NCBI GenBank assembly: GCA_019308905.1
Contig: JAFDHF010000003.1
Coordinates: forward strand, 10,282 to 74,281
Length of the DNA stretch: 64,000 bases
From: Deltaproteobacteria bacterium
GTDB taxonomy: Bacteria > Desulfobacterota > BSN033 > WVXP01
Reading direction: 5' to 3'
Shown here: positions 5,181 to 56,701 of the stretch, piece after piece
How the letters are laid out: the number at the start of each line of letters is the position of its first letter
Numbering within the stretch: the first letter of the stretch is position 1
Program-made: the position numbers and the translations under genes
The notes under the pieces: model-generated
What the model was told of the DNA's origin: nothing
Seen by the model: the letters and a program-made list of their open reading frames with translations, nothing else
Databases searched by the model: none

Positions 5181-5429
5181 ATGGAGGGTGGAGTGCTGAT
5201 CTTGACAAGGAAGTCAGGTGAGAGGATCACTATTGGCGATCGGATCCGGGTAACGGTCGTCGAGATCAAGGGGAAACAGGTTCGTCTGGGTATCGAGGCC
5301 CCACCGGATACCAAGGTTCACCGGGAAGAGATATTCCAGAAGATCCAGCACGAAAACGAGGTGGCAGCCAGCAGCGGTGTGAAGGCCCTGGAAACCCTGG
5401 CCCGCTTCTGGCAGGAGAAGTCCGAGTGA
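5181..5429 (+). CDS. csrA: Carbon storage regulator CsrA
   Basis: [47 protein letters not shown] is the canonical CsrA sequence. The true start may be the GTG at 5193. Confidence 0.92.
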
Positions 5430-5556
5430 AGACCGGCGGCAGCGGGTTTTCCCGGGCCAGGCGGGTTGAGGCAGAAGGTATGAGAGGTGGCAACTCTTCA
5501 TTGAGCCGAGAATCCCGGAGGAGCATGCATCGTGCCGGAGAGGCTTGGCGGTTGCC

Positions 5557-5594
5557 CGCCGACGGGGGAACCCCGTCGGCGAGGACTCCTCGCC
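5557..5594 (+). promoter_or_regulatory. Strong GC hairpin pair in the csrA-fliW intergenic region
   Basis: CGCCGACGGGG-gaa-CCCCGTCGGCG forms a perfect 11-bp stem at 5557-5581. It overlaps a second hairpin, GCGAGG-act-CCTCGC, at 5579-5593. No U-tract follows. Confidence 0.4.
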
Positions 5595-5635
5595 TCAGGG
5601 CAAGCAGCCGCTCTCAGGAGAGCAAGGCGCGGACC

Positions 5636-6070
5636 ATGAAGCTCATTTCCAAGAAGCTCGGCGAGGTTTGCTACAGGGAAGACGAGGTAATCACTTTCCC
5701 AGAGGGTCTGCTCGGTTTTCCAGAAAAGAAGCGCTACGTCTTTGTCGAGCACCGAGGGGGAAGCCCCCTGAAGTGGCTCCAGTGCCTCGATGATCCGTCG
5801 CTCAGCTTCGTAGTCGTCAATCCTCTGCTTTTCAAGAGGGATTACGAGGTGCGGGTTGACAAGAGGGATCTCGCCCTTGTGGGGGATTCCGATCCCGCCC
5901 ATATCACCATCTGGACCCTGATCTCCTTCACTCCCGACGCTCCCGAAGCCAGTACGGCCAATCTCCTGGGTCCCCTGGCCATCAACTGTGCAACCCGTCT
6001 CGGAAAGCAACTGGTCCTCGATCCCTCCAAGTACGATCTCCGGTATCCCATCTTCAAGAACAAGAGATGA
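5636..6070 (+). CDS. fliW: Flagellar assembly factor FliW (CsrA antagonist)
   Basis: MKLISKKLGEVCYREDEVITFPEGLLGFPEKKRYVFVEH... is typical FliW, about 145 aa. The ORF-track N-terminal extension from 5426 is low-complexity Arg/Ser-rich and probably not translated. Confidence 0.85.
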   Translation: MKLISKKLGEVCYREDEVITFPEGLLGFPEKKRYVFVEHRGGSPLKWLQCLDDPSLSFVVVNPLLFKRDYEVRVDKRDLALVGDSDPAHITIWTLISFTPDAPEASTANLLGPLAINCATRLGKQLVLDPSKYDLRYPIFKNKR

Positions 6071-6148
6071 AAGGCGCAGGATCGTTCTTGCCTGGTGAAC
6101 CCCCTCCGGTAAGCCGCCGGGCATCCGCGTGAAGGCGAGTGAAAAGGC

Positions 6149-6176
6149 TAAAGTCCTCCCTCCAATCGACCGATAA
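6149..6176 (+). promoter_or_regulatory. Sigma-28 type promoter upstream of flagellin
   Basis: TAAAGTCC (6149-6156), then 12 nt, then ACCGATAA (6169-6176; 7/8 to GCCGATAA). The N12 spacer matches the flgM promoter in this window. About 185-nt leader to the fliC ATG. Confidence 0.55.
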
Positions 6177-6286
6177 CTCAACTGAATACGAGAGGGTCTC
6201 TCAAGGACCCGGAAAAAGACCGGAGAGAAAGGGGGGATGAAAGCGCGATGTCAGGTTCTCACAAGGCAACAAATGTGAGGACCCAG

Positions 6287-6304
6287 CAGGGTAAGGATAC
6301 CCTG
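6287..6304 (+). promoter_or_regulatory. CsrA-type binding hairpin in the fliC leader (GGA in loop)
   Basis: CAGGGT-AAGGAT-ACCCTG: a 6-bp stem with AAGGAU in the loop. A second GGA overlaps the Shine-Dalgarno sequence ACAAGGAGG at 6342-6350. This two-site arrangement is what CsrA needs to repress hag in Bacillus subtilis. Confidence 0.5.
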
Positions 6305-6361
6305 ACTATTAAGACACGGACGGCCCAAGGCCGGCCGCAACAGGACAAGGAGGTTTGAATC

Positions 6362-7204
6362 ATGGCACTTCGTATCAACCACAACGTAATGGCTCTCAAT
6401 TCCTACCGGCACCTGAGCATCACCCAGGGCAAGCTGTCCAAGTCGATCGAGAAGCTCTCGTCTGGTCTCAGGATCGTCCGGGCAGCCGATGACGCCGCAG
6501 GCCTCGCGATTTCCGAGAAGATGCGGGCCGACATCCGCGGTTTCAATCAAGCGGTTCGGAATGCCAACGACGGTGTGAGCATGCTCCAGACCGCTGAAGG
6601 GGCTCTGAACGAGATCAGTGGCATGCTGACCCGAATGAGGGAGCTTGCCGAGCAGGCGGCAACGGGTACCGTGGGGACGAGCCAGAAGGGAACCCTGGAT
6701 CAGGAATTCCAGGCCCTGGTGAGCGAGATCAACCGGATCGCCGACGCTACGGAGTTCAACGGCACCAAGCTGATCAACGGTGCTCTCTCTTCCGGGTCCG
6801 CCACCGCGGCGACCTTCCAGATCGGTATCGGCAACAACTCGAGCACAGACAGGTTGAGCATCGGCATCAGCGGCATGCACGCGGCATCCATCGGCCTCAG
6901 CGGCATCTCCATAAGCGCCACCGCCAATGCTCTGACCGCTCTGGCGGCCGTCGACACGGCTATTGCCAATGTGGCCAGCCAGCGAGGCGATATCGGTGCG
7001 GTTCAGAACAGGCTCGAGAGCACCATAGCCAACCTCAATATCTCGGCAGAGAACCTGACGGCGGCCGAGTCTCAGATCCGTGATGTGGACATGGCGCTCG
7101 AGATGGCCAATTTCACCAAGAATCAGATCATGACCCAGGCTGGAACAGCCATGTTGGCCCAGGCGAACCTGGCCAACCAGTCGGTTCTGACGCTTCTTGG
7201 TTAA
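6362..7204 (+). CDS. fliC: Flagellin (short, 280 aa)
   Basis: MALRINHNVMALNSYRHLSITQGKLSKSIEKLSSGLRIVRAADDAAGLAISEKM... N-terminus and LLG C-terminus are flagellin D0/D1. AGGAGG RBS upstream. There is no hypervariable domain. The central segment is Ser/Thr/Ala-rich. Confidence 0.95.
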   Translation: MALRINHNVMALNSYRHLSITQGKLSKSIEKLSSGLRIVRAADDAAGLAISEKMRADIRGFNQAVRNANDGVSMLQTAEGALNEISGMLTRMRELAEQAATGTVGTSQKGTLDQEFQALVSEINRIADATEFNGTKLINGALSSGSATAATFQIGIGNNSSTDRLSIGISGMHAASIGLSGISISATANALTALAAVDTAIANVASQRGDIGAVQNRLESTIANLNISAENLTAAESQIRDVDMALEMANFTKNQIMTQAGTAMLAQANLANQSVLTLLG

Positions 7205-10147: not shown

Positions 10148-13100
10148 GTGGTCCGGGGATACGCCTCCCCGCCTTTGCTCCCGAATAACAACAAAAGACA
10201 TCCATGGGTACCTTGCCTCACCGGCCCGGTCTCCGTCTCAGGCATGGGTTGGTACGGCCTTTGCTTCCAAGGCGGTGGATATTTCCCTGACCGGAAAAGC
10301 AAACTGGAGGACGGGGTGGCTACCGGGTCGTGTCTCAATATCCTCACCTTCAACTGGCATGAGGCTTATCTGACGATGCTCGCCCGAACAGGGCATCTTT
10401 TCCACGCGGTGGAGGTCGCCAAGGGGGGACACTTCGGGTGGCAATACAACATGCGACCTCTCCCTGAAAACATCACCCTCCTGCAGGAGGCGGAGGCCCT
10501 CGCAAGGCTCCGGGCAGGGGATTTCGACCTCGTGGTATGCCATAACATGAGGGACCTTCTGGCAGTCGAAGGGGTCGATATCCCCAAGATCCTCGTGTTT
10601 CACAACAAGATCTCCACCGAAATCGCCCTGGGAGGCCACAGGGCCACAGCCGAACAGTACCGTACCGGGATCCGTGACCTTGCGGCAAGAAACCGTCTGA
10701 CCCTTGTCTTTATCTCCGAGTCTAAGCGGGAGAACTGCGCACTGGAAGGACCCGTGATCCTCCCAGGGATCGACCTGAATCACTACGGCGGGTATAAGGG
10801 GGAGGTGGAGCGGGTTCTCAGGGTGGGCAACCTCATGAAAGAACGGGACATCATGCTCGGGTTCTCATGGCAGGAGGAGATCCTGAGGGGTATCCCCTCC
10901 ACCCTTGTAGGAATCAATCCTACGGTTGCCGAGTCGAGAGTGTCGGAAAGCTGGCAGGATCTGAAGAACCACTATCAGAGCCACCGCCTTTTTCTCAACT
11001 CCACCCTCCATCCGTGGGAAGACGGGTACAACCTGGCCATGCTGGAGGCCATGGCCACGGGGATGCCTGTTGTCTCCATTGCGAACCCGACATCCCCGAT
11101 CGTGGACGGCATAAATGGTTACATTTCTCAGGACACGGCTTATCTGAGGCATAGGATCGAAGAACTTCTCTCGGACAGGGAAAAGGCCTCCGAACTCGGG
11201 AGGCAAGCCCGGAAGACTGTGGAGAAGCGGTTTCCCATGGCCCGGTTCGTCCGAGGCTGGAACCGTCTTTTCGAAAAGGTCATGGAGAGATCGACGAATC
11301 CCGCGATCCCCCGCTGGCGGAGAAATCCCGAGTGGTGTCGAGGCGGTCGCTCTCGGTCCACGAGGGAAAACACTGTTGGGATGAAAAACGTCCTTCTCTG
11401 CTATACCTCCAACCCGACTACGACGGGATGCTACCTGGAGAGAAGCTTCAGAAGGCATCACAACGTTATCACCTGTGGTCCTGCTATCAGCCGGGAAATG
11501 ATCCGCGCCTGGAACCTTGAAAACATGAAGGAGAAGCCCAGGACTCATGATTTTTCCTCGGCTTCAGTGGATCTGAGGGTTGTCATGGGATCCGTGGGCA
11601 AGGTTTGGCGCCCCGACTTCTTGCTCTGGGTCGAGACGGGGATCTGGTTTCCCCTGGAGGGGCTCGATTCACTCGACTGCCCCAGGGCCTGTTACCTCAT
11701 CGACACCCATCTGCACAGGGATCTCCATCTCAGGTGGGCCAGAAACTTCGATGTGGTCTTTCTGGCCCAGCGGGCCTATATCCCGATTTTCCAGGAGGCA
11801 GGGATAGAAAGGGTCTACTGGCTTCCTCTGGCCTGTGATCGTGATATCCACGGCAGGAAGAGGGTAAAGAAGCGCTATGATATTGGGTTCGTAGGGAGCA
11901 TCACCGCTGGAAACCAGAGGAGAATCGTTCTTCTCGATCGGCTTTCAAAGCGTTTTGATCTTCATGTTGAGAGATGTTTTCTCAAGGACATGGCCCGTGT
12001 TTTCAGTGCTTCGAGAATCGTCTTCAACAACGCCATCAAAGATGATCTCAACATGCGTATTTTCGAGGTCCTTGCCAGTGGAAGCCTTCTCCTTACCGAC
12101 AGGGCCAGGGGGAGCGGGCTCGAGGACCTCTTCCAGGACAGGGTCCACCTGGTGATCTACGAGGACGAGAGTCTGGAAGATATCGCCGGATACTATCTCG
12201 ACCATGAGGAAGAGCGGGAGGCCATAGCGGCCAGGGGAAGAAGAGAGGTCCTGATGAGGCATACCTACGACCACAGGGTTCGGGAGATCATCAACAGGCT
12301 CGGGGACGTGAGCCAACAGGGCAGTCGGAGGGCTTCCTGGAGGGCAATGAGAGGATTCAGGCGGAGGCCTCAGCAGGGGCCGAGCCCCGCGAGTTCGATT
12401 CCAGGTGAGAAACTCGAAGAGAAGGGCTGCCTGACCGAAGCGAGAGAGCGATATTGGGAGCGGTTGAAGAGAGACCCATCAGACAGAAGGGCGCTCATGG
12501 GGCTCGGCAGGATCTCCATCCGGTTTCAGAAGTGGCAGGCCGCAGAGTCATACCTCCAGAGGGCGGTTGATGTGGAGGAGGATTGGGAGTCGCTCTTTCT
12601 CCTGGCGAGGTGCAAGATGAATTCTGGAAAGCAGTCAGAGGCACTGGCCTATCTCGACAGAGCCAGGGATCAGGACGGCCGGGATCCCCGTCGTCGGACG
12701 GCGGTGCTCAGCGCCATGGGGGAGTGCCTGGGACAATTGGGTGATTACGAAAGAGCAGAGGCGAGCTTTGTCGAGGCCGCCGGTGTGGACCCCTCTTCCG
12801 ATGAGGCCTGGACCGGCTTGGGAGAGGTCGAAAGTATGAGAGGGAATCACGAAAAAGCAGAAGGGGCCTTTCGAAAGGCCGTCGGTATCAACTCGAAGAA
12901 CGATCGTGCCCGGTGCGGCCTGGGACTCGCCGTGTGGGAGCGGGGCAAAAGGGACGAGGCCATCGAAATACTCCAAAGGGCTCTCGACATAAACCCCGAA
13001 AACCTGGTCTGCCTGAACCGTCTTCTCGGATGCTGCCGCGAGGAGGGGATGTTCAATGTGGCGGAGAGGTATCTCAAGGAGTACCTGAGGGTCCATCCCT

Positions 13101-17858: not shown

Positions 17859-18842
17859 ATGCAAGGGCCGAAGATATTCTACTTCTGCTATGACCACCAG
17901 AACCCCACAGGGGGGCAGAAACAGGTATACAGACATGTGGACATCCTCAACGGCCACGGCCGTCAGGCCTTTGTGCTCCATCTGGAGAGAGGATTTAGGC
18001 TCACCTGGTTCGACAACACGACCCGGGCGATCAGCCTGGACGAATTCAAGGGGACCTACCAGGCCGACAGGGACGTACTGGTTATTCCAGAGGATCTGGG
18101 TGAGAGGATCCTCGCATTCCCGGGCCGAAAGGTCATTTTCAACCAGAACTGCTACTACGGGTTCTCCTGTTTCGGTCTCCGGGAGCCCGAGATCTACCCG
18201 TACCTACACCCTGACATAATAGGCGTGTTCGTGGTATCGGATCATAACCGGGAATATCTGAGTTTTGCCTATCCTCGGTTGAAGATTCACCGGGTCTACT
18301 ATGGAATAGATCCGGAGAGATTCGCCTATCGGCCTCTGAAGGAAAAGAAGAAAATGATAGCCTGCCTCCCGGCCAAGAACTCTATGGAGGTTGCACAGGT
18401 TTATCACCAACTGATTTCCAGATCGAAACAGGCTCTGAACGTACTGGAGGACTATGAATGGGTTTTTATCCAAAATCGATCCGAGACAGAGGTGACCAGA
18501 ATACTCGGAGACGCCTTGCTGTTTATCTTTTTGAGCACGAATGAGGGCTTCGGGCTCATGCCCCTCGAGGCTATGGCCTCCGGGAGTCTGGTTGTTGCTT
18601 ACGATTCTGGCGCTTCGTCGGAATTCCTTGGCCCCTCGAACTCGTTTCTTTCTGCACCGGGCGATGTGTTGGGTATCGTAAGGACTGTGGAGCGAATCAC
18701 TTCTCTCTTCCCCGGCGATACGCGGGAACTGCAAGCGGTGAGCGAGGCAGCCCTGAGAGGGGCACGTGAATACTCGCTCCAGAGAGAGATCGAAAGCGTG
18801 GTCGCAGCGTGGCAAGAGATCACAGGAGAAATCCGCCCTTGA
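17859..18842 (+). CDS. GT4-like glycosyltransferase
   Basis: FLSTNEGFGLMPLEAMASGSLVVAYDSGASSEF is the E-x7-E retaining GT-B motif. Confidence 0.7.
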   Translation: MQGPKIFYFCYDHQNPTGGQKQVYRHVDILNGHGRQAFVLHLERGFRLTWFDNTTRAISLDEFKGTYQADRDVLVIPEDLGERILAFPGRKVIFNQNCYYGFSCFGLREPEIYPYLHPDIIGVFVVSDHNREYLSFAYPRLKIHRVYYGIDPERFAYRPLKEKKKMIACLPAKNSMEVAQVYHQLISRSKQALNVLEDYEWVFIQNRSETEVTRILGDALLFIFLSTNEGFGLMPLEAMASGSLVVAYDSGASSEFLGPSNSFLSAPGDVLGIVRTVERITSLFPGDTRELQAVSEAALRGAREYSLQREIESVVAAWQEITGEIRP

Positions 18843-19095
18843 GACGGGGACGACATGATCGGATCTGCACCCGGCTCGGCAAGGCGTTCCGTCTTTCCGA
18901 TGTGAATGGCCATCGCTTTCCTGGAGCGAGGATTTCTCGCCTCGCGGGAGGGAGGAACGATCTTCCCAGGGGTTGTCAAGGGGCCGGCCTCGGATGTCAA
19001 TAACCCGTACGGGTGACTCTCTGCTTTTCTGATCAATTTCCTCCTCGGCCAGACTTCTTTGGCCTTCCGGTCTTCCGTGGTGAACAGCCCCCAGT

Positions 19096-19111
19096 GGCAC
19101 ACTAATTGCTT
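19096..19111 (+). promoter_or_regulatory. Sigma-54 (RpoN) -24/-12 promoter
   Basis: TGGCAC-actaa-TTGCT is an exact match to consensus TGGCAC-N5-TTGCW. It lies 42 nt upstream of the NusG-paralog start. Confidence 0.6.
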
Positions 19112-19120
19112 TTCCACTCA

Positions 19121-19135
19121 CTGAATGGACAGTTG
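19121..19135 (+). promoter_or_regulatory. Leader motif ACTGAATGGACAGTT (first of three TGAATGGA copies)
   Basis: TGAATGGA(C/T)(A/G)GT recurs at 19896-19909 and 20057-20070. GGGACGA(A/C)(G/A)TG recurs at 18847-18858, 19777-19789 and 19977-19989. Together these define three degenerate tandem units in untranslated leaders. Confidence 0.35.
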
Positions 19136-19152
19136 GGTTTCAGTCGGGCGTA

Positions 19153-19713
19153 TTGGCTATGCCGCGAAGTGTCGAGGAATATCCACGGATCAGCTTTCCT
19201 GAGGATGTGCTGGAGCACCGGGTTGACGGCGAGCTATGGTGGGTGGCTCACACCAAGAGCAGGAGGGAAAAGGCGCTTGCCGTTTTGCTGGAGAGGCAGA
19301 GAATCGGGTACTTCCTGCCCCTGATGAAAAAGCGTTACCGGAGCAGTGGCCGGGCCAGAATATCCATAGTTCCCATGTTTTCGGGATATGCCTTTTTCAA
19401 AGGTTCGAGATTGGACCGCTATCATGCTTTGAAGACCGGTCATGTTGCCAACGTTCTCGAGGTCTCTGACCAGCAGCAACTGGTCAGGGAGCTGAAGCAG
19501 ATTCAAAAGGCAATCTGTCTGGATGCCCCGGTTGAACCCTTCCCTTTTGTGAAGCAGGGAAACAGGGTGAGGGTGGTTGATGGACCCTTCATGGGGCTCG
19601 AAGGGGTCATTGAGAGGCGCAAGAGGTCGGACCGGCTGATCCTGTCTGTCGATACCATCAGACGGTCAGTCGCCCTCGAAATCGACGCGGATAGTGTCGA
19701 ACCGGTTTCCTGA
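19153..19713 (+). CDS. NusG-paralog transcription antiterminator (UpxY/LoaP/TaA-like; NGN + KOW)
   Basis: NGN-type N-terminus (WWVAHTKSRREKALAVLLERQRIGYFLPL...). KOW-like C-terminus (VRVVDGPFMGLEGVIER). 186 aa is too short for housekeeping NusG, and the gene sits at the head of a polysaccharide-type locus. Confidence 0.7.
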   Translation: MAMPRSVEEYPRISFPEDVLEHRVDGELWWVAHTKSRREKALAVLLERQRIGYFLPLMKKRYRSSGRARISIVPMFSGYAFFKGSRLDRYHALKTGHVANVLEVSDQQQLVRELKQIQKAICLDAPVEPFPFVKQGNRVRVVDGPFMGLEGVIERRKRSDRLILSVDTIRRSVALEIDADSVEPVS

Positions 19714-20086
19714 GAACCACCTTCCACGATCCATCGATGCCTACAACGCAAGGGTTTTGACAAACTCTGACATCGAAGGGGACGAAGTGCAGCCAGGCAG
19801 TGCGTGGTGGTATCGAAAGATGGGCCGCAGGGCACCTTTCTTCTCAGCCAAAGGGGCTCAAGTGGGACCTGATTCCTGCCGATAATGACCATATAGTGAA
19901 TGGACGGTCGGCTGTCCATCTCCAGTACGATCTCAGAATTTCTCCCGCGGACTGCAACACCCAAAGGTACAGCGAAAGGGACGAAGTGTGTTCCCCCGGC
20001 GCCGTTAGGAACGGTATTGTCGACCGAGACATCTCTCTTTCCAGGGTAACCATGTAGTGAATGGATAGTCTCTTCAAGGAAGCGAA

Positions 20087-20707
20087 ATGATAAACGGAGA
20101 ATCGAGATTTTTCGTACCCAGCAAGCTCCTGAGGACTCTGCATGTTTTGACCGAGATAGGGCGGCAACCCGACATCAGCCAGCACCAGCTTGCGTTGCGG
20201 GCCAGACTGAGCAGCTCGCAAATCAACAACTACGTCAAAGAACTGAAGGCCAAGGGCCTGGTCAATACCAAGGGCAATACGAACCGGACGATGCGCTATC
20301 TCCTGACTCCTGAAGGGCATCGGACGAGATCTTCGCTGCTGGTGGCATACTCGGTGGATGTGATTCAGCTTTACTCCCGGGTGAAGAGGGAATTCGCGGC
20401 AAAATTGCAGCAGATCTTCGACGAGGGATTGGCCAGGGTCATTCTCTTTGGGGCTGCAGAAACCGGGGAGTTGGCTTTGACCGCCTCGAGGGAAACTGAT
20501 CTGGACGTCATCGGTATTTCCGACAACGACCCGCTGAAACACGGTAAACCCTTCGGAGATCTGAGGATCATCCCTCCTTCGGAAATAGAGGGTTTGAACC
20601 CGGATGGAATCGTCATTACTTCCTTTGGACGGTTGGGAGAAATCCTCGAGAGCCTGCGGTTCTTGGAGAAAAAGGGGATAGCCATGAGGAGCCTCACTGA
20701 TGAATAG
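20087..20707 (+). CDS. Winged-helix regulator with C-terminal Rossmann-like (PglD/NeuD-N-like, Rex-like architecture) domain
   Basis: N-terminus is MarR/wHTH-like (ISQHQLALRARLSSSQINNYVKELKAKGLV). C-terminus RVILFGAAETGELAL...DVIGISDNDPLKHGKPFGDLRIIP...DGIVITS resembles the NeuD/PglD N-terminal nucleotide-binding fold. Confidence 0.55.
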   Translation: MINGESRFFVPSKLLRTLHVLTEIGRQPDISQHQLALRARLSSSQINNYVKELKAKGLVNTKGNTNRTMRYLLTPEGHRTRSSLLVAYSVDVIQLYSRVKREFAAKLQQIFDEGLARVILFGAAETGELALTASRETDLDVIGISDNDPLKHGKPFGDLRIIPPSEIEGLNPDGIVITSFGRLGEILESLRFLEKKGIAMRSLTDE

Positions 20708-20749
20708 ACACTGCCCGGAAGAGCACCCCGGGGTGACAGGAAAGAGGCC

Positions 20750-22276
20750 ATGAAGGGAATGGACAAGATTAGAGTTTTTGTAATGGATTGCGACGGCGTC
20801 CTTACGGACGGGACGATTTATTACGGCAAAGACGGGGAGAGCCTGAGGAAGTTCAACACGAGGGACGGCATGGCGATCGAATTACTCCGGCGACACAATG
20901 TCCGGACTGCCCTCGTTTCCGGCGAGGACTCTGCCGCCATCTCGCAGAGGGCTGAAAAGCTTCGGATCGACAGGATATGGCTGGGGGTGAAGGACAAGAA
21001 AGGGGTATTGCGAGAGCTGGAGAGAACCTTCGATGTTTGTGCAGAAGAGATTGCCTACATCGGTGACGACATCAATGACATAGAGCTCATGAAATCAGTC
21101 GGCTTCCCCATTGCCGTAGCCGATGCCAGCCCCAAAGTCAAGAATGTGGCGACCTATGTCACCAGGGCGGCCGGGGGCCGTGGCGCGGTTCGGGAGGCGA
21201 TCGAACTCCTCCTGGATGAGAGGGCGAAGAAGGCCATCGATGTGGCGGGTCGTCTGATCGGTGAATCGCAACCGTGCTTTCTGATAGCCGAAATCGGAAA
21301 CAACCACCAAGGAGAGGTCGAACTGGCCAGGACATTGATCGACATATCCGGCGAGGCGGGAGTGGACGCGGTCAAATTCCAAAAGAGAGACAATCGAACC
21401 CTCTTGACCCGGGAGGGGTTTCACAAATCCTACGGGGGAACCCATAGCTTCGGCAGGACCTACGGCCAACACCGGGAATATCTGGAACTGAGCAAGGATG
21501 ATTTCGCCTCTCTGAAGGAATACGCCGAATCCAAAGGTCTCATATTCTTCTCGTCGGTCTGGGACGAAAAGAGTGTGGATGTCCTGGAATCGATCGGTGT
21601 TGCCCTCTATAAGATTCCCTCTGCCGATCTCACCAATATCAGGCTCGTGGAGAAGGTCGCCGAGATCGGGAAGCCTACCATACTCTCCACGGGCATGAGC
21701 TTCCTCCATGAGATCGACTCCGCTGTGCACCTCTTTCTCAAGAGGAACGAAAACCTCATCCTGATGCACTGTGTAAGCGTCTATCCTCATCCACCGGCCC
21801 TGGCGAACATGAGAGTCATCGAGACCCTGAGACAGCGGTATCATCTCCCGGTTGGGTATTCTTCGCACGAGGAGGGTATTCTCGTGACCAGCGCCGCTCC
21901 GCTCCTCGGTGCTGTTGCGATAGAGAAGCACGTTACCCTGGACCGGAATATGAGAGGGAGTGACCACAGGGCCTCGATCGAAAAGGAGGAACTGGTCAGG
22001 ATGGTGAGCCTGATCCGCCTCTACGACAAGGCTCGGGGGGATGGAATCAAGACTCTCCTGCCCGATGAGATTGAATCGAGAAAAAAGCTCGGCAAAAGCA
22101 TCGTTGCCAAAAGGGACATCGAGAAGGGTGAGGTACTCAACTGGAGGAACATCACCTACAGATGCGCCAACAACGGGATGTACACCCTGGATTTGAAGGA
22201 CGTCCTTGGCAAGGTCAGCTCTTGCAACATCAAGCGTGACGAGTTGATAAGCGAAAGGGTGATCGCCAATCCATGA
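20750..22276 (+). CDS. Bifunctional KdsC-type HAD phosphatase :: NeuB-family nonulosonate synthase (with SAF domain)
   Basis: Residues 1-165 match KDO-8-P phosphatase (VMDCDGVLTDG...GDDINDIELMK...TRAAGGRGAVREAIELLL). The remainder matches NeuB/PseI (CFLIAEIGNNHQG...VDAVKFQK..., C-terminal SAF). Confidence 0.85.
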   Translation: MKGMDKIRVFVMDCDGVLTDGTIYYGKDGESLRKFNTRDGMAIELLRRHNVRTALVSGEDSAAISQRAEKLRIDRIWLGVKDKKGVLRELERTFDVCAEEIAYIGDDINDIELMKSVGFPIAVADASPKVKNVATYVTRAAGGRGAVREAIELLLDERAKKAIDVAGRLIGESQPCFLIAEIGNNHQGEVELARTLIDISGEAGVDAVKFQKRDNRTLLTREGFHKSYGGTHSFGRTYGQHREYLELSKDDFASLKEYAESKGLIFFSSVWDEKSVDVLESIGVALYKIPSADLTNIRLVEKVAEIGKPTILSTGMSFLHEIDSAVHLFLKRNENLILMHCVSVYPHPPALANMRVIETLRQRYHLPVGYSSHEEGILVTSAAPLLGAVAIEKHVTLDRNMRGSDHRASIEKEELVRMVSLIRLYDKARGDGIKTLLPDEIESRKKLGKSIVAKRDIEKGEVLNWRNITYRCANNGMYTLDLKDVLGKVSSCNIKRDELISERVIANP

Positions 22277-43230: not shown

Positions 43231-44379
43231 ATGGAGAAGAACATACTGATCATCAACAACGAATTTCCGCCGATCGGAGGGGGTGCCGGAAATGCCTCTT
43301 TCTACCTTGCCAAAAATCTCTCGAAACTCGGGCATAGAGTCAGGGTTGTAACTGCGGGGTTCCGTGACCTCCCTCCCAGGGAGGAGGAGGGCGGAGTCAC
43401 AATCAACCGTGTGAAATGCAGCAGAAGGAAACGGTTTGAGTCGGGGCTTTGGGAACTTCTGTCATATGCTGGAAGCGCCGTGAGATTCATATCCCGGGAA
43501 TTGAAGGCCGGCGGAGAAAGGTATGATATCTCGATATGCTTCCACACCCTTCCAGCAGGGATGGTGAGTTATGCCTTGCTAAGAAACTCGAATGTACCGT
43601 ACATAGTCATGCTGCGAGGGGGGGACGTGCCGGGTTTTCTTCCCGAGAGGTTCAGATACTACCACATGGTTTCCATGCCGGTGATCAAGGCTGTGTGGAA
43701 GAACGCACGGCACGTGGTGGCGAACTCGAAAGGACTGGGGGAGCTGGCTGGAAGAACGGCATGCAGGATCGGCCGGGAGGTCCTGGTCATAGAGAACGGC
43801 GTCGATCTTTCCTCATTTCAAGCCCGAAGCAGACACCGGTTCGATGGAACCCTGAGAATGCTCTTTGTGGGCCGGTTGGAGAAACAGAAGGGCATTCCCT
43901 ATCTGATAGAGGCCGTGTCTCTGCTCGCAGTGGAAGACCGCGAAAGGGTCAGAGTCGATCTGATCGGAGAAGGACCCGAAAGGGCGGTTTTGGAAGAGAT
44001 GATAGAGGAGAGAGGGCTCCGCAATTTCAGGTTCCTGGGGTATTTCCCTCATGACAGAATCAGCACGCGATTCGGGGAGGCGGATCTGTTCGTCCTCCCA
44101 TCCCTTTACGAAGGAATGCCGAATGCCCTTCTCGAGGCGATGGCAGGAGGGCTTCCTGCATTGGTAACGGATATCATGGGCAACAATGAATTGGTTGAGA
44201 ATGAAATAAACGGTTTTCTGGTCCCCCCTGCTGATCCGTGGGCGCTGAGGGCTGCCATAATGAGATTCCTGGAACGCCCCGAGTTGCTCTCAGAATTCCG
44301 AGAAAACACCCTGTGCAGGGTACGGAAATTCGATTGGATGAAGGCGACACAAGAGTTGAACAACCTGATAATGAGCTAG
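43231..44379 (+). CDS. GT4-family glycosyltransferase
   Basis: ILIINNEFPPIGGGAGNASFYLAKNL N-terminus and PSLYEGMPNALLEAMAGGLPALVTD (E-x7-E). ATG 43231. Confidence 0.85.
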   Translation: MEKNILIINNEFPPIGGGAGNASFYLAKNLSKLGHRVRVVTAGFRDLPPREEEGGVTINRVKCSRRKRFESGLWELLSYAGSAVRFISRELKAGGERYDISICFHTLPAGMVSYALLRNSNVPYIVMLRGGDVPGFLPERFRYYHMVSMPVIKAVWKNARHVVANSKGLGELAGRTACRIGREVLVIENGVDLSSFQARSRHRFDGTLRMLFVGRLEKQKGIPYLIEAVSLLAVEDRERVRVDLIGEGPERAVLEEMIEERGLRNFRFLGYFPHDRISTRFGEADLFVLPSLYEGMPNALLEAMAGGLPALVTDIMGNNELVENEINGFLVPPADPWALRAAIMRFLERPELLSEFRENTLCRVRKFDWMKATQELNNLIMS

Positions 44380-45437
44380 TGCCCGTCCGGAAAGCCCCTG
44401 TTCACGTCCGATCAGTTCAGAAAAAAGACTCGAGTCTCTGGGATTTCCTCGAACCACCCGACAGTCAAGAATCAAACCCGAACGGCCGCCTGTCAGATAG
44501 ACCTTATGACCGTAACACGGCTCACGTCCCCCTTTTTCGATGATGCCGGTATGATCTTCAAAAAACGAAACCACCTTCTCAGAGGCTGCAACCTTCTCCC
44601 CCCGAATCACCCGACGCTCGGTCTGATCGATCACTCGCCCGAAGATCATCAGCTCCCGCTCCAGCTTCTCCATCAATACCCGAGCCCGGCAAAACTCTCC
44701 TACATCATCGCTCTGAAAATGATCCAATGCCGATATGGCCTCTGTAGTATAACCCACAACCCGACGAGCCACCCCGAGAAGCTCTCGGTAAGCCTTCTGG
44801 CGAACTTTGCTGCTCCTGCTGTTGACAATGGCCATGACTCGCCTGTTTGCCACCCGTCGGTGGTCCGAAAACCGATACCCAGGCACAGGCCGAAGCCGTT
44901 TTCCCTCAATCAAAAGCCGAGTGATAAGCCGGATGCCATCCTCCAGAAGCCTGGAGTCCGTAGGATAATGGATATTGCTCTCAATGGCCGTGGAGTCGAG
45001 CCGAACCGTACGACCCTTCTTGAACCCTTAAACCACAGCGTATCGGATGAGCAGCCTGTTGACCGCCTCCCGGGTACCGGGCCTAAGTTGCTTGATGTTT
45101 TATTGAAGGGTCGATACCCCAGCCGCTGCCCCATCCCAAGCCGACAAGAGGCCCGAAAGGACTGAGAATCCTCCAGATGAAAGGCCAGCTCCTCATAGCT
45201 CAAATTGCGATACTGCTTCAATATGGTACATCGAAGGACCTGCTCGGCCGTCATCCCCTCACGCCCCGTGTCAGGACGCTTGGCCCGAACCATATCCCGA
45301 TAAACAAGATCATAGATGCCTGGATTGTCATCGAGAACTCTCGAAATGGCCTCCAGTTCTCGGGCGACCTGGTTGCGCGGCATGGTGTGGAAAATACTCA
45401 GTTGAGAAATCCGTTTTTCACGCATCTTTATCCCCAC
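44290..45437 (-). pseudogene. IS5/ISNCY-type transposase, frameshifted and 3'-degenerate
   Basis: N-terminal fragment (44910-45437) has a DUF772/InsH-N-like segment (...GREGMTAEQVLRCTILKQYRNLSYEELAFHL...). It continues in another frame (44290-44913) into a DDE-region remnant. The tail overlaps the upstream GT4 gene, so the reading frame is not intact. Confidence 0.65.
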
Positions 45438-45580
45438 AGAATAGAGATTTGTCTAACTATTTCAAGACCTTATTGTGAGGATGATACACCGAATAACATG
45501 AAAATACAACACAAAAATGACCACATATTCAATTAAATCAATCAATTAGAGTTTCCGGATGGAGTCTATCTACCTGCAAT
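44380..45580 (-). mobile_element. Degenerate insertion-sequence remnant with AT-rich junction
   Basis: The only minus-strand coding signal in the window. Base composition drops sharply at 45440-45580 (runs of A/T such as ATTCAATTAAATCAATCAATTAG). No intact terminal inverted repeats were identified by eye. Confidence 0.5.
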
Positions 45581-45581
45581 C

Positions 45582-46850
45582 ATGATCTTTCCAAAGGACA
45601 AGACGGCCGCTCCCGGGATACACCCGACCGATTCCGGGGATTTTGTCTCCCGTGCCTGTGGAGATCCCGCAGATGTATACGTGGCCGAAGACTCTGATGG
45701 CCTGTTCATGGGGGACCTGATGACCAAAACCGGAGATCCTTTCTATGAAGGATCGAGCATCTTGAAGGTTTCATACTGGTACAAGAAGTCTTTGGTGGTT
45801 CCCCGCTTCAACCTCGTCCTCTTGGAGAAGAAGATCCGGTTCCACTTGGTGGACATCTCTTCCGCGTGGAAGAAGGTAGAAGAGCAATCGGATAGGGTGG
45901 TAACGTCGATTCTTTCTACGTTTGACTTCTTTGAGAGGTCTCCCGATGCAATGGAGGATTTTGGCCGGCTCCTTGGCGACTACTACAGCAGAAAGGGTGT
46001 CGAGCTGGATAAGATGGGTCGCTCCGAAGAGGCAAAGGCGGCGATGCTTACCTCGATCTCCTGTTTCCTGAATCAGGCCGACGTGCATCGGAATCTCGCG
46101 GTGATTCTCGCCCGGCAGGGCGAGCTGGAAAGAGCCGTCCGCTACATCCGTGGTGCTTTACAAATCGATCCACGAAAAGAGGAGTACTGGTCTCTTCTGA
46201 TCGCACTGTTGAACAGATGCGGGCTCGACTCGGAAGGGATCGACTGGATGAGGAAGATGGAGGGGGTGATCCCGCCTGATCCGGGATTGCTCAGAGCCCT
46301 TGGGGCATTGGGGTTGACCTATCACCAGGAAGATATGATCGCCATTGTGCTCGGCTTGATCGAGAAGATTGAGCCAGAGGATGCCATGATAGGTCCCTTG
46401 AAATCAGCCCTGGAAGGCGATCTGAGTGAGGCGGTCAGGCAATATGAGGCACTGCCCACGAAACCGGGCAGCAGGAGCATCCCCCGGGATCTCTCAACGG
46501 CAGGGTGTGAAAGGCCCTTTTCCAACCAAGAGATGCTGAAAACGTTGAGATGTCTCCTTCCGGAGGGGAGACGGCGAATCGCGCTCTACACGGCAGGAGG
46601 AGCTACCAGATCTCTCTTGGAAAGGACCTCCTTTGCCGGCTTCGAGATTGTTTGCATCATCGACAGGGACCGTTCCGGAGGCACACTTAACGGCTATCCG
46701 ATTGTGACACTCAGCACGGCGCTGGAACAAGGAGTGGACTATATCATCGTCTCCAGCCCTGCTTTCTATAGCGAAATCAAGCCGAAACTACAGGCAAGGG
46801 GCCTTAGAGAATTCAACGATTTCAGCCCCCTCCCGCCCCACTCTTCTTGA
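45582..46850 (+). CDS. TPR-like protein fused to Rossmann-like PglD/NeuD-N-like module
   Basis: Central helical/TPR-like repeats. C-terminal RIALYTAGGATRSLL...FEIVCIIDRDRSGGTLNGYPIV...DYIIVSS is the repeated module. Start uncertain. Confidence 0.5.
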   Translation: MIFPKDKTAAPGIHPTDSGDFVSRACGDPADVYVAEDSDGLFMGDLMTKTGDPFYEGSSILKVSYWYKKSLVVPRFNLVLLEKKIRFHLVDISSAWKKVEEQSDRVVTSILSTFDFFERSPDAMEDFGRLLGDYYSRKGVELDKMGRSEEAKAAMLTSISCFLNQADVHRNLAVILARQGELERAVRYIRGALQIDPRKEEYWSLLIALLNRCGLDSEGIDWMRKMEGVIPPDPGLLRALGALGLTYHQEDMIAIVLGLIEKIEPEDAMIGPLKSALEGDLSEAVRQYEALPTKPGSRSIPRDLSTAGCERPFSNQEMLKTLRCLLPEGRRRIALYTAGGATRSLLERTSFAGFEIVCIIDRDRSGGTLNGYPIVTLSTALEQGVDYIIVSSPAFYSEIKPKLQARGLREFNDFSPLPPHSS

Positions 46851-46896
46851 AGGCGGGCATAGGTCTCGAGAAGCCGGATCAGAGGAGAATCGAATC

Positions 46897-47859
46897 ATGC
46901 CTTCGTTTATTTGCGATTTCTTGAAGGAGATCGTCGTCTTGTCCGACGGTGGTGTGACAACCTGCTGCATGGATCCCCTGGGAATGAACCGTTTCGGCAG
47001 CATTTACAGGGACAGCTTTGAAGATATCCAGGCAAGATATATGAGCGTCCGCCGGAGAATAACGAAAGATGTTCTCCTTATGCCCCGATGTTCCAGGTGC
47101 TTCAATAAGATCAAGGAACAAGGCTTTCCCGAGACGGGGACTTACAAGGTCGATCCGGATTCAGCAGAAATCAGGAGGTTTATCGACAGAGGAAGGGACG
47201 ATGTATTTCAGCTCGTGATCGAGCTTTCTTCCAAATGCAACCTCAAGTGTAATGGCTGCATGCAGAGCCGGGTGAATTTTGAAGAATACAGGGCCGATCC
47301 TTTCCTCGACGTCGACTATCTGCAGTCATGGGTGGGCCGATACTGGGGCGAAGTCAAGAAGATACGCCTCTACAATTACGGTGAGACTTTCATGCACCCG
47401 GGGGCACTGGGATTCTGCTCTTTTGTCAAGAAACACGGTCCTGACACCGTGGTTGAGATTGCGACCAACGGAATGCTGCTGGATACGCACGAAAAGAGAA
47501 GGGAAATCGTCTTGTCCGGGGTCGACGATATCGTCTTTTCGATTCACGGAAGCAGCCAAGAGATCATACAGAAGTATATGACCAGGAAGTTCTCTTTTGA
47601 AAAGGTTCTGGATACCTTGAAGGACCTTGCAGCGATCAAGCATGAGCTCGGCTTCTCGAAGCCGAGATTGTTCTGGAAGTATCTCCTCTTTGAATGGAAC
47701 GACTCGGACGAGGAGATAACGAGGGCTAGAACCTTATCCAGGGAAATCGGGCTTGAGGGCGTGATCTTCGGCCTGGTGGGATTTCCGGCCCCTTCAAGAC
47801 GTTTTACACGACACAGCGAAGAGTGGAAACGCCTCGTGAGGGAATCCCAGGCTCTTTGA
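46897..47859 (+). CDS. Radical SAM domain protein
   Basis: SSKCNLKCNGC (CxxxCxxC). An additional N-terminal Cys pair/cluster (TTCCMDP...CSRC). Confidence 0.65.
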   Translation: MPSFICDFLKEIVVLSDGGVTTCCMDPLGMNRFGSIYRDSFEDIQARYMSVRRRITKDVLLMPRCSRCFNKIKEQGFPETGTYKVDPDSAEIRRFIDRGRDDVFQLVIELSSKCNLKCNGCMQSRVNFEEYRADPFLDVDYLQSWVGRYWGEVKKIRLYNYGETFMHPGALGFCSFVKKHGPDTVVEIATNGMLLDTHEKRREIVLSGVDDIVFSIHGSSQEIIQKYMTRKFSFEKVLDTLKDLAAIKHELGFSKPRLFWKYLLFEWNDSDEEITRARTLSREIGLEGVIFGLVGFPAPSRRFTRHSEEWKRLVRESQAL

Positions 47860-47902
47860 GACTAGGTGGCGATTCTCTCAGTTCTTTGTGAAAGGGTAGG
47901 TC

Positions 47903-49057
47903 ATGGAGGAATGGTCTCCGCCGAAGAGATGGAATCCTTTCAACAGCAACAAACTCCTAGCCCAGGTATACCGGTGGCGCCTGATAAAGAGGGGAGCCTC
48001 TCTGCCTCAACCGGTTCTCGTCACGGTCGACCCGATAAACGCATGTAACCTGAGATGCACGTGGTGCAATTCCCGGTTCGTGTTGAGAAATCGGAACGGA
48101 ATGATAGATCGAGAAGCGCTGATGGAAATCGCAGAGGGTCTGGCCCGCTGGCAGGGCAGTCCTGACTGGCCGGCCGGGGTTGAGGCGGTCTGCATCGCGG
48201 GTGGAGGGGAACCTCTCCTGCATCCTGATGTTGGCGCTTTTATCGAATCCTGCATCGACAATGGGATCGAGGTGGGGGTGGTTACCAACGGAGTCAATAT
48301 CGACAGGTTCATCCCCCAGCTCGCCCTCTGCACTTGGGTAGGGGTTTCGGTGGATGCCGGTTCTCGCAAGACGTTCGAATCACTCAAAGGGAGGGACCTT
48401 TTCAACGAGGTCTGCAGGAACATGAGGAGTCTGTCGGACTATCTGTCGCGGAATGCCTGTACCTTAGGCCGCGAAGGCTCGGGCCGGGGGGTGAGCTACA
48501 AGTATCTACTGTACGACGGGAATATCGACGAGGTTTTCGAGGCAGCGAGGATAGCAAAGGAGGTGGGGGCCAAGAACTTTCATCTCCGTCCCGCAGGAAC
48601 CCCGTGGCATCTTCTCCCTGGGAGAAGTGGGTCGGTTTTTCACGGAGATGCCAAGATGAGACTCGGTGAGCAGATTGACAAGGCCCGTGAGCTCGAAGAT
48701 GAAACCTTCGGTGTCTATGCGATTACGCATAAGTTCGGTCCCGAGTTGGAGATCGCGAACAACTTCGACACATGCCATGCTATCTTCATGACAGCGGTTT
48801 TCATGCCGCCGAGGGATGAGAGAAGAGAGAGGTTTTGCGTGAGCTGCTGCTGTGACAGGCGCGGCGACCCCAGGCTGGAGTTTGGAGAATCTCTCAGGGA
48901 ATTCAAACAGGTGGAAGAGTTGTGGGGATCCGAGAAACACTGGCAGATATTCGACCGGATCGATCTGAAAGATTGCCCGCGGTGTACTTACGCACCCCAT
49001 AATCAGATGTTCACCCAGGTCATAGAGAGAGATGACATGACCTATAAGTTCATCTAG
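47903..49057 (+). CDS. Radical SAM / SPASM-domain protein
   Basis: NACNLRCTWC, and a C-terminal CVSCCCDRRG...DCPRCTY Cys cluster. Confidence 0.75.
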   Translation: MEEWSPPKRWNPFNSNKLLAQVYRWRLIKRGASLPQPVLVTVDPINACNLRCTWCNSRFVLRNRNGMIDREALMEIAEGLARWQGSPDWPAGVEAVCIAGGGEPLLHPDVGAFIESCIDNGIEVGVVTNGVNIDRFIPQLALCTWVGVSVDAGSRKTFESLKGRDLFNEVCRNMRSLSDYLSRNACTLGREGSGRGVSYKYLLYDGNIDEVFEAARIAKEVGAKNFHLRPAGTPWHLLPGRSGSVFHGDAKMRLGEQIDKARELEDETFGVYAITHKFGPELEIANNFDTCHAIFMTAVFMPPRDERRERFCVSCCCDRRGDPRLEFGESLREFKQVEELWGSEKHWQIFDRIDLKDCPRCTYAPHNQMFTQVIERDDMTYKFI

Positions 49058-49104
49058 CGGTCACCGAAGAATGCGCCTTTCAAACCCTATCTGGATATGA
49101 GGCT

Positions 49105-49923
49105 ATGGAGAAGGTAAGCATTGTCATTCCGAATTATAACCAGGTGAAATACCTCCCCGCATGTATCGACAGTTGCTATTTTCAAACCTATCCGAATATC
49201 GAGCTGATCATTGTCGACGGGGGGTCGACCGACGGAACAAAAGAATATCTGGCAGGCCTTGAGCAGAGGATCGAAAGCGAGAAGGTCGCTCCTGTACTCT
49301 ATATGGACGGGAACGGAGAGATAGTCTACAAGGAGTGCCTGGCCTACCATGAAGACACCCATGCCGAACATCCGAAACGTGAAATAAAGATATTTTCTTT
49401 TCGTGAAAACCTGGGCAGGACGCGCTCTTATAATGTGGGTTTCAAAGAAGTCACGGGTAGATACTGCACATATGTCGTCGGGGATGACATTGCGCATCCC
49501 CATATGATAGAAGAACTCGTTTCGGCGATAGAGGCAAGTAACGCGGATGTGGTCTATTCCGATTTCAATATAGTCGATGATACAGGGCACATCCTCCGTC
49601 TCGTGCGCAAACCGGACTACGATTTTGAGGAATGTCTTGCCAAGTGGTTCCATCTAGGCGTTTCCCGCCTTCACCGGTCGTCATGGTTCAAAAAAGTGGG
49701 ATTCATGGATGAGGACTTCCGGGTGGCCAACGATTACAGCTTCTTCCTCAAGATGGCCAAAGCCGGGGCGACCTTTCATCACGTCGCGAGGGTCCTGTAT
49801 TCGGTCCGCTTCCACGGTGCCGAAACGGACCTGGAGGAATCTAAGAAGCTCGCTTTAGAGGCAAGGCGATTCATCTGTTCAGGCGGGAGGAAAGAGGAGC
49901 AACTCCACCTTAACGGTGTATAG
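49105..49923 (+). CDS. GT2-family glycosyltransferase
   Basis: VSIVIPNYNQVKYLPACIDSCYFQTYPNIELIIVDGGSTDGT is the GT-A signature. Confidence 0.85.
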   Translation: MEKVSIVIPNYNQVKYLPACIDSCYFQTYPNIELIIVDGGSTDGTKEYLAGLEQRIESEKVAPVLYMDGNGEIVYKECLAYHEDTHAEHPKREIKIFSFRENLGRTRSYNVGFKEVTGRYCTYVVGDDIAHPHMIEELVSAIEASNADVVYSDFNIVDDTGHILRLVRKPDYDFEECLAKWFHLGVSRLHRSSWFKKVGFMDEDFRVANDYSFFLKMAKAGATFHHVARVLYSVRFHGAETDLEESKKLALEARRFICSGGRKEEQLHLNGV

Positions 49924-52627: not shown

Positions 52628-52634
52628 CGAGAGG

Positions 52635-56685: not shown

Positions 56686-56701
56686 GAAGGGATAGCGAGC
56701 C

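Follow-up and report, generated by a model that had tools for sequence, protein, structure and literature searches.

A specialised NusG paralog, an ops-like leader motif and a winged-helix regulator in the candidate control region of a flagellin-glycosylation island

How might the transcription of a long glycan gene cluster be tied to the building of a flagellum? The question is raised by a 64,000-nucleotide (nt) stretch of the Deltaproteobacteria bacterium assembly GCA_019308905.1 (contig JAFDHF010000003.1), here called the window, in which a flagellin-glycosylation island adjoins late flagellar genes. The region at 18.97-20.7 kb, which encodes a specialised NusG paralog and a regulator that combines a winged helix-turn-helix (wHTH) with a Rossmann-like domain, is read here as the control region of that island, with two separable modules; the probability of this reading is put at about 0.55. 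Two short intergenic motifs are central to the argument, motif A behind the paralog gene and the palindromic motif B at the promoters and before the wHTH-Rossmann gene. A search for these motifs in homologous loci, an idea put forward in an earlier note on this DNA, found that A and B do recur, with separate partners.

The first gene of the region, on the forward strand, encodes a protein of 184 amino acids (19159-19713, ATG; this form is the database protein P0001) or of 186 amino acids if a TTG start is used (19153-19713). An NGN domain (PF02357, 34 bits, cut-off 22.2) is followed by a KOW domain (PF00467, 27 bits, cut-off 22.3), and by this domain order, by its AlphaFold2 (AF2) model and by Foldseek matches to NusG and RfaH the protein belongs to the NusG/Spt5 family. 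It had been described as an NGN+KOW protein of the UpxY/LoaP/TaA type. Both domains are there, but even the best NCBIfam model, UpxY (NF033644), gives 77.5 bits against a curated cut-off of 100, and the RfaH (TIGR01955, 52.7 bits against 144.5) and LoaP (NF033641, 44.4 bits against 125) models fall further short; the protein is a specialised NusG paralog that, by curated cut-offs, stands outside the named subfamilies. The AF2 model, built with 31 homologues, is compact (predicted local distance difference test, pLDDT, 90.9; predicted template modelling score, pTM, 0.86) and folds the KOW domain as a beta-barrel. The nearest solved relatives found with Foldseek and phmmer are NusG, RfaH and 8f5g, entitled 'NusG-RNA complex', and chain 8f5g_A is the best of these both by sequence (E = 2.6e-6) and by full-length fold (template modelling score, TM, 0.50-0.53).

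Homologues of the paralog number 163 in the database, and its relatives in GTDB genomes number 320. The latter come mostly from Desulfobacterota and Planctomycetota metagenome-assembled genomes and show 42-50% protein identity, while closer relatives, at 61-72% identity, are found on short metagenome contigs only. Eight close loci were retrieved (L081, L082, L084, L086, L087, L090, L091 and L093); a metagenome scan with the single paralog protein gave three loci, and the other close relatives were fetched individually. The distant set comprises 80 paralog loci at 42-50% identity from Desulfobacterota and Planctomycetota. The order paralog, wHTH-Rossmann gene, HAD-NeuB fusion gene is kept in the close loci, and in the distant locus L001 the order differs from that of the window, being wHTH gene, neuB, paralog, motif A and next gene.

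Motif A was searched for by regular expression and then with an nhmmer profile over two iterations, and it occurs twice on the forward strand of the window. The first copy, GAAG-GGG-ACGAAGT-GCA (19775-19791, core from 19779, mini-hairpin ACGAAGT at 19782-19788), is matched by the profile at 19770-19794 with E = 0.0027 and ends on an A rather than the consensus G. The second copy, GAAA-GGG-ACGAAGT-GTG (19974-19990, core from 19978, mini-hairpin at 19981-19987), is matched at 19969-19993 with E = 0.0002 and has the full consensus, including G-11, G-10, Y-1 and G+1, with the last two at 19989/19990. A gapless alignment of 32 copies, 30 of them from outside the window, gives the consensus GA(A/C)(A/G)-GGG-R-C-G-R-A-G-Y-N-Y-G, and the second-iteration profile returns 38 matches with E < 1 on the gene strand as opposed to one on the opposite strand. 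Within the window the statistics are weak: the conserved form GGGRCGRAGYG occurs twice where 0.56 would be expected, a count that 11 of 100 shuffles also attain; it is the comparative data that show both copies to be real.

These comparative data concern above all the company that motif A keeps. It is found 47-157 nt after the paralog stop codon in 19 of the 80 distant loci, in Desulfobacterota as well as Planctomycetota, and in none of the four loci where the wHTH gene occurs without the paralog. Fifteen loci with motif A have neither the wHTH gene nor a B-type match, and six more have background B matches only. Motif A thus travels with the paralog gene across two phyla, whatever gene comes next. 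Two further paralog relatives at 65-66% identity, L085 and L092, lie in a different setting: a sigma-54 site is lacking upstream of the paralog (90 nt examined in L085, 185 nt in L092), the L085 gene stands after genes for ParA-like and AAA ATPases that are typical of exopolysaccharide loci, and a variant motif A, GG(G)GCGGAGCTGT, lies approximately 210-230 nt 3' of the paralog (3595-3611 in L085, 1505-1525 in L092). The pairing of A with the paralog may therefore extend beyond flagellar islands. In four Desulfobacterales loci (L011, L015, L019 and L029) a second conserved block, CCYTTGATAGTGGGCKGAAAA, is found about 35 nt 5' of motif A; with its -10-like GATAGT, this block could act as a promoter between the paralog gene and A.

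The core of motif A appears to be a very small hairpin. Alignment columns 16:22 (AU 23, GU 5, GC 4) and 17:21 (CG 31, UA 1) are paired in all 64 cells of the 32 copies, and the pairing and covariation score is reached by none of 500 shuffles and is far lower in slid controls, which points to a two-pair stem closing a G-N-A triloop, a C-GNA-G mini-hairpin. The loop is GAA in the whole clade of the window and GGA in other copies. The textbook case of a stable DNA mini-hairpin is d(GCGAAGC), and a GNA triloop on two base pairs is stable as a DNA mini-hairpin and weak as RNA. Two larger structures were also considered and rejected: a four-pair stem around A (in which columns 14-17 would pair with 25-28) and a CCCC/GGGG stem 5' of it do no better than shuffled or slid controls, and both are missing in the window's clade.

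Around this hairpin, the GGG at -12 to -10 is invariant, a pyrimidine stands at -1 in 32 of 32 copies and a G at +1 in 26 of 32. The consensus pause is -10G/-1Y/+1G (PMC10268239), and motif A carries this signature on the non-template strand, with G in columns 14-15 of all 32 copies, Y in column 24 and G in column 25. In the ops element, G1 is followed by a hairpin from G2 to C9 (pairs G2:C9, C3:G8 and G4:A7, loop G5-T6), then by G10 and T11; the pause is at U11, and G12 occupies the core recognition element pocket (PMC11001881). Because the C-GNA-G hairpin and the -10G/-1Y/+1G signature match the plan of ops, motif A is read here as a putative ops-like pause-and-load site for the paralog family.

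Choosing between a DNA and an RNA reading of the hairpin is beyond sequence alone. The rival to the ops-like reading holds that the paralog recognises A as nascent RNA, as LoaP binds its UNCG hairpin, and not as non-template DNA. LoaP needs a leader RNA hairpin (PMC12691694). The best solved relative of the paralog is entitled a complex with RNA, the paralog model is compact, five copies of A have a G.U-type outer pair, and many Desulfobacterota copies carry CCCC-GAAA-GGGG just upstream, all of which favour an RNA target. The supported pairing nevertheless consists of two base pairs on a GNA triloop, an arrangement that is weak as RNA; the upstream CCCC/GGGG and four-pair stems are unsupported and missing in the window's clade, and G-11/G-10 and Y-1/G+1 at a fixed distance fit a pause read on DNA. 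Recognition as RNA is considered unlikely, if by no means negligible.

Much less probable is that motif A serves as a translation or processing signal for the next gene, either through its Shine-Dalgarno-like GGAG or as a CsrA site. The end of the motif in L001 is separated by 5 nt from the following start codon, so that GGAG could be a Shine-Dalgarno sequence, and the GGA triloop of some copies resembles the CsrA core. Against this, the loop in the whole clade of the window is GAA and not GGA, for which reason a CsrA site was rejected, and the distance to the next start codon ranges from 5 to approximately 100 nt, for which reason a Shine-Dalgarno role was rejected as well: in L081 it is about 40 nt, in the window the nearest start codon follows the second copy at about 97 nt, and no gene follows the first. 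Motif A also tracks the paralog gene in two phyla regardless of the next gene. Rfam, JUMPStart included, offers no counterpart: there is no match at gathering score in the 64 kb and nothing relevant at E up to 10 in 18500-20400.

The ops-like reading of A invites comparison with RfaH. Both systems pair a specialised NusG paralog with long operons for glycans or surface structures, and in both the leader holds an element of about 12 nt on the coding strand, with G-11/G-10, a short hairpin in which C:G stands beside G.A, two nucleotides, and Y-1/G+1. They differ in that AF2 predicts, with high confidence, a beta-barrel KOW domain for the window's paralog, which may yet have a second state, whereas that of RfaH is an autoinhibited alpha-hairpin that switches its fold, and in that the loop of motif A is a single purine in place of the G-T of ops, so that the T6 needed by RfaH is missing. 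The canonical ops sequence GGCGGTAGnnTG is absent from the window in exact form, and its one-mismatch variants (3 against 2.74 expected) include none in a leader. Moreover, the gene for the window's paralog lies in cis, directly 5' of the site, while rfaH forms a cistron of its own and acts in trans (PMC7819879).

UpxY of Bacteroides capsule loci is the best-scoring curated family, and there as here the paralog gene comes first in the glycan locus that it presumably serves and regulation takes place in the leader (PMC7819879). However, the score stays below the UpxY cut-off, the organism belongs to the Desulfobacterota and not the Bacteroidota, the promoters here are of the sigma-54 and sigma-28 types, the candidate site lies 3' of the paralog gene whereas UpxY works in the leader 5' of upxY, and the next gene encodes the wHTH-Rossmann protein, no UpxZ-like partner having been identified (no UpxZ-model search was made). 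LoaP of Bacillus and Thermoanaerobacter likewise adjoins its target operon and acts with a short conserved leader element, and the nearest structure to the window's paralog, 8f5g, is a NusG-RNA complex; LoaP differs by the model score given above, by the UNCG tetraloop hairpin, of which none was seen here, and by the leader terminator, of which none is predicted.

If motif A concerns elongation, where would transcription begin? The earlier note had placed a perfect sigma-54 promoter, TGGCAC-N5-TTGCT, at 19096-19111. The sequence is exact and conserved in eight loci, with the position off by one base: the site, TGGCACACTAATTGCT (-24 TGGCAC, -12 TTGCT), lies on the forward strand at 19095-19110. 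Exact TGGCAC-N5-TTGCW occurs once in the 64 kb, against 0.01 expected. TGGCAY-N5-TTGC precedes the paralog gene in all eight loci with upstream DNA, the window and seven related metagenome loci, with TGGCA and TTGC invariant in the alignment, and similar sites precede regulator or paralog genes in L001, L002, L009 and L097. From canonical -12 spacing, transcription would start near 19121.

Upstream of the promoter a pair of GTCAA repeats on the forward strand (18975-18979 and 18996-19000), 21 bp apart and at -120/-99 from the -24 element, forms a candidate enhancer or upstream activating sequence. The pair GTCAA-N16-GTCAA recurs in L081, L086 and L090 at -131/-110, -130/-109 and -129/-108, and a single GTCAA is found at about -90 in L087, L091 and L093; judging by position, the repeats may bind an enhancer-binding activator, the genes for rpoN and activators lying outside the window. 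A scan of 18700-20900 for sigma-70-like promoters found none in either intergenic leader, its sole match lying inside the paralog gene. A one-mismatch sigma-54-like site, TGGTACGGCCTTTGCT, is also present at 10250-10265, near the start of the large glycosyltransferase/TPR gene after fliS; whether it falls within the coding sequence depends on where that gene truly starts.

Between the paralog and the wHTH gene lies a second promoter, which the earlier note does not mention and which is the stronger link to flagellin expression. This sigma-28 (FliA-type) promoter, TCAAG-N15-GCCGATAA, is on the forward strand at 19858-19885 and contains the only exact GCCGATAA in the window. The pattern TMAAG-N15-RCCGATAA has two occurrences in the 64 kb, against 0.00 expected, and the other is the promoter of the flagellin gene itself (TAAAG-N15-ACCGATAA, 6149-6176), which has the same -35/-10 pattern and spacing. 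The site is kept in six further loci, seven with the window. In Pseudomonas aeruginosa fliC the sigma-28 -10 consensus GCCGATAA is located at -15 to -8, with TAAAG as the -35 element (PMC12784957); the spacer of the window site is 1 nt longer than that of P. aeruginosa fliC. With canonical spacing, a start is predicted near 19893.

Both promoters of the control region are overlaid by motif B, a palindrome of 17 bp, approximately TCCATTCA-N-TGAATGGA. The first copy in the window (TCCACTCA-C-TGAATGGA, 19113-19129) is an imperfect palindrome centred on the predicted sigma-54 start, the second (ACCATATA-G-TGAATGGA, 19888-19904) overlaps the predicted sigma-28 start, and the third (ACCATGTA-G-TGAATGGA, 20049-20065) lies 22 nt 5' of the wHTH-Rossmann start codon. 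The right half, TGAATGGAYRGT, has three exact copies in the window, against 0.09 expected. At the sigma-54 site the letters TCCA..CA..G.ATGGA are invariant in eight loci and keep a constant distance to the -12 element, the copies beginning 3-6 nt after TTGCT and centring on the predicted start; at the sigma-28 site AACCATATAGTGAATGGACGGTT is nearly invariant in seven loci, 2 nt after GCCGATAA. In L086 the palindrome is perfect (TCCATTCAGTGAATGGA, that is TCCATTCA-G-TGAATGGA), and in L084 a similar copy, CCATGAAGTTAATGGATGG, immediately precedes the wHTH gene. An apparent fourth copy in the window (20748-20764) overlaps the neuB start codon, is coding and is not conserved in L081, and was put down to chance. 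In the intergenic DNA 5' of the sigma-54 promoter, GTGAATGGCCATCG (18903-18916) contains a right half of B followed by a CCAT that resembles the left half.

The protein most probably concerned is the wHTH-Rossmann regulator (20087-20707, forward strand), whose MarR-type winged helix is recognised by MarR_2 (PF12802, 32.6 bits, cut-off 27), PF01047 (27.5 bits, cut-off 24.6) and HTH_24 (31.4 bits), whereas the exopolysaccharide-associated MarR model TIGR04176 gives 37 bits against a cut-off of 88. Only 28 database clusters belong to this rare family, and relatives of the gene adjoin flagellin, Maf and FlgM genes. The AF2 model (pLDDT 90.1) places a 38-residue helix between the two domains, and the top full-length Foldseek matches are Rex-family repressors (E about 2e-6 over about 215 aligned columns, TM 0.35). 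Like Rex, the protein joins a winged helix and a Rossmann fold in one chain, at that TM of 0.35; the NCBIfam Rex model NF003995 gives 17.4 bits against a cut-off of 126. The likeness to Rex and MarR proteins lies in the N-terminal winged helix followed by a Rossmann-like domain, in the MarR_2 and HTH_24 scores above cut-off and in palindromes that overlap promoters. The differences lie in a domain arrangement that departs from that of Rex, given the low TM, in the long linker helix and in a context of sugar biosynthesis, not respiration.

In the distant loci B palindromes again follow promoters that are sigma-54-like or sigma-28-like, with one each in L002, L005 and L009 and both types in tandem in L001 (2060-2400), 5' of the wHTH gene. 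The same tandem arrangement, each promoter with its own B after it, is present 5' of the wHTH gene in L097 (5690-5980), beside flgM, and in L095 and L096 the palindrome follows, by eye, sigma-70-type hexamers. If B belongs with the wHTH gene, it should also be present where this gene occurs without the paralog. In L095, L096 and L097 it is, immediately 3' of promoter-like sequence in front of the wHTH gene and once more after neuB; in L094, the fourth such locus, the wHTH gene is in an operon behind a Maf gene, with no B nearby. Overall, a loose B pattern is present in 13 of the 14 loci that carry the wHTH gene (4 of the 14 being without the paralog), against 14 of 82 loci without it. Because B travels with the wHTH gene even where the paralog is missing, it is read here as the probable operator of the wHTH-Rossmann protein.

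A palindrome at the 5' end of both predicted transcripts might also be expected to act as an RNA stem-loop, in mRNA stability or CsrA-type control, the more so as csrA and fliW are in the window and B holds AUGGA. Several features of B fit this poorly. Canonical spacing puts both predicted starts within or beyond the left arm, so that this arm would remain untranscribed; the C.A mismatches in the arms of the window and L081 are one-arm changes that are uncompensated; the half-sites stay the same while the spacer between them varies, being 1 nt long in some loci and 5 nt in others, a typical trait of half-sites for proteins; a folded stem would hide the GG of GGA; and B co-occurs with the wHTH gene. 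The uncompensated changes, the variable spacer and the place of the left arm at or upstream of the predicted starts argue for a protein operator, and the stem-loop explanation is regarded as improbable.

Motifs A and B had been described in the earlier note as the two ends of a repeated unit, present three times in tandem, in which a 5' GGGACGA box and a 3' TGAATGGA box would act jointly. Both boxes do occur thrice on the forward strand within 1.2 kb, and all six instances are present within 1-2 nt of where they had been reported, but the copy at 18847 (GGGACGACATG) is unsupported: it has no C-GNA-G core, gets no score from the profile and lacks a conserved counterpart in L081 or L086. The sigma-54 promoter also lies between this copy and the box at 19122 with which it had been paired, which would keep the two off a single transcript. 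The intergenic order is A, B, A, B in the window, B then A in L081, L082, L086 and L090, A then B in L084, and A, B, A in L087 and L091. Because order and number differ between loci, and because A partners the paralog and B the wHTH gene, the two are independent elements and not the ends of one unit, and joint action of three tandem units can hardly be maintained. Minimum-free-energy folds of these units do not improve on those of shuffles (z = -0.06 to +0.77). The two roles that had been suggested for the units, an ops/JUMPStart element or sites for the wHTH regulator, can be divided between them, with an ops-type element fitting A and wHTH sites fitting B, while the JUMPStart part finds no match in Rfam.

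Taken together, these elements, among which each promoter has a copy of A behind it, suggest the following mechanism. Sigma-54 holoenzyme, activated from the GTCAA repeats as candidate enhancer, would transcribe the paralog gene and the genes downstream, reading through both copies of A; the sigma-28 promoter would open a second transcript at about 19893 that passes the second copy. Because the sigma-28 promoter shares the architecture of the flagellin promoter, the sugar-pathway genes would be made together with flagellin. The Rex-like protein would bind B as a dimer and repress both promoters and its own gene, and repression may be modulated by a nucleotide-type ligand bound to its Rossmann domain. 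During elongation, polymerase would pause at the Y/G step of A, the non-template strand would form the C-GNA-G mini-hairpin, and the paralog would load there, stay on the polymerase and make it resist pausing and termination over at least 24 kb of glycosylation genes. What the analysis shows is the sequence elements, the way they are conserved and co-occur, and the folds of the proteins; start positions, pausing, binding partners, DNA or RNA recognition, repression and antitermination are all inferred here from sequence. Both promoter types are familiar from the sigma-54/sigma-28 flagellar hierarchy and conform to its consensus; what differs is that they are stacked before one glycosylation operon, with the same palindrome on each and a dedicated elongation factor.

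A number of observations count against this model. Motif A is not universal to the paralog family, since 57 of the 80 distant loci have none within 400 nt downstream of the paralog, and these 57 share no convincing 8-mer 3' of the gene. Aligned on the pause, A agrees with Escherichia coli ops in only 5-9 of 12 bases; its stem has just two Watson-Crick pairs, and the covariation rests on few independent events. No column of the paralog alignment separates loci with the GAA loop from those with the GGA loop, and the fact that the closest solved relative, 8f5g, is a NusG-RNA complex makes an RNA target a live alternative. No intrinsic terminator that could be a target of antitermination is predicted on the forward strand outside coding sequence in 18700-20900, nor in the L084 leader (where a weak hairpin and then a T7 run can be seen by eye). 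For the second motif, the loose B pattern has background matches in loci without the wHTH gene, and the similarity of the wHTH-Rossmann protein to Rex is architectural only, given its TM of 0.35 and its score with the Rex model.

The gene content around the control region bears on the flagellar connection. The window begins with the late flagellar genes flgI, flgN, flgK, a flgL-like gene, csrA (5181-5429; Pfam CsrA, 84 bits), fliW, the flagellin gene (6362-7204), fliD and fliS, after which glycosyltransferase and methyltransferase genes follow up to 18842. Behind the control region are genes for a HAD-NeuB fusion, a SIS-domain protein, a cytidylyltransferase of the CMP-sugar type and an asparagine synthase-like protein, as well as for many radical-SAM enzymes, a sulfotransferase, heptosyltransferase-like proteins and proteins with a Maf N-terminal domain. 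Because late flagellar genes are found in one window with NeuB, the cytidylyltransferase and the Maf N-terminal domain proteins, 'flagellin-glycosylation island' is a fair description of the gene content. Two proposals of the earlier note are borne out here, namely a link between the island and the flagellar hierarchy, seen in its position beside the genes from flgI to fliS and in its Maf N-terminal domain proteins, and a specialised NusG paralog at the head of a long glycan gene cluster. A third, that everything downstream is co-directional, is true for most of the island, with forward-strand gene runs at 19159-44379 and 45582-62714, but an IS5-type transposase fragment on the reverse strand (DUF772, 26 bits; 44290-45437) interrupts the run. 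An AT-rich, gene-free stretch follows the fragment (the two together spanning 44290-45580) and leaves island halves of 19.1-44.4 kb and 45.6-62.7 kb, of which the second might require its own promoter.

Several features of the neighbouring genes deserve mention in their own right. The NeuB-type nonulosonic acid synthase (20750-22276) has an N-terminal KdsC/HAD-type phosphatase fusion that is kept in L082, L084, L086 and L090; in L094 and L097 the fusion partner is instead an AP_endonuc_2 (xylose-isomerase-like) domain. Between 28267 and 50998 there are at least seven radical-SAM/B12-binding/SPASM enzymes, an unusual number, together with a sulfotransferase, amine oxidases and a polysaccharide deacetylase-like gene, a set which suggests a heavily tailored sugar. 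The csrA and fliW genes lie directly 5' of the flagellin gene (5181-6360), whose leader of approximately 180 nt contains the hairpin CAGGGTA-AGGA-TACCCTG (6287-6304), with GGA in the loop, and ACAAGGAGG over the ribosome-binding site (6345-6353). This leader looks like a case of two-site CsrA/FliW control, which is known for Bacillus hag.

Specialised NusG paralogs that head glycan operons are already known, as are sigma-54 and sigma-28 flagellar promoters. What appears to be new is a paralog family with its own ops-like site behind its gene, the use of such a system for flagellin glycosylation, and operators of a wHTH regulator on both starts. A literature text search of incomplete coverage found nothing linking a NusG paralog to flagellin glycosylation, and a large survey of RfaH-like proteins makes no mention of flagella, Deltaproteobacteria or Planctomycetes. 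Recruitment signals are known for just two specialised NusG paralogs, the ops DNA of RfaH and the RNA hairpin of LoaP, and those of UpxY and TaA are unknown (PMC7819879); the authors of the ops complex structure asked whether hairpins with other loops recruit other factors (PMC11001881). It is possible, as a tentative proposal with the odds somewhat against it, that the paralog family with A as its recruitment site is a hitherto uncharacterised one and A a second natural example of the ops principle of a pause combined with a mini-hairpin in the non-template strand, built on a C-GNA-G triloop in place of the G-T loop, and that with a nucleotide-sensing, Rex-like repressor on the starts of both promoters it makes up a complete module dedicated to the control of flagellin glycosylation. 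If the proposed reading is true, a third paralog family would have a short, sharply conserved candidate site, in two phyla, with the geometry of ops and a different loop, which bears on that question of recruitment by other-loop hairpins. The early (sigma-54) and late (sigma-28) flagellar promoters would then stand one behind the other on a single operon, each with the operator of a rare repressor of ligand-sensing type lying over it, and the position of the site right behind the paralog gene could let the newly made factor load in cis.

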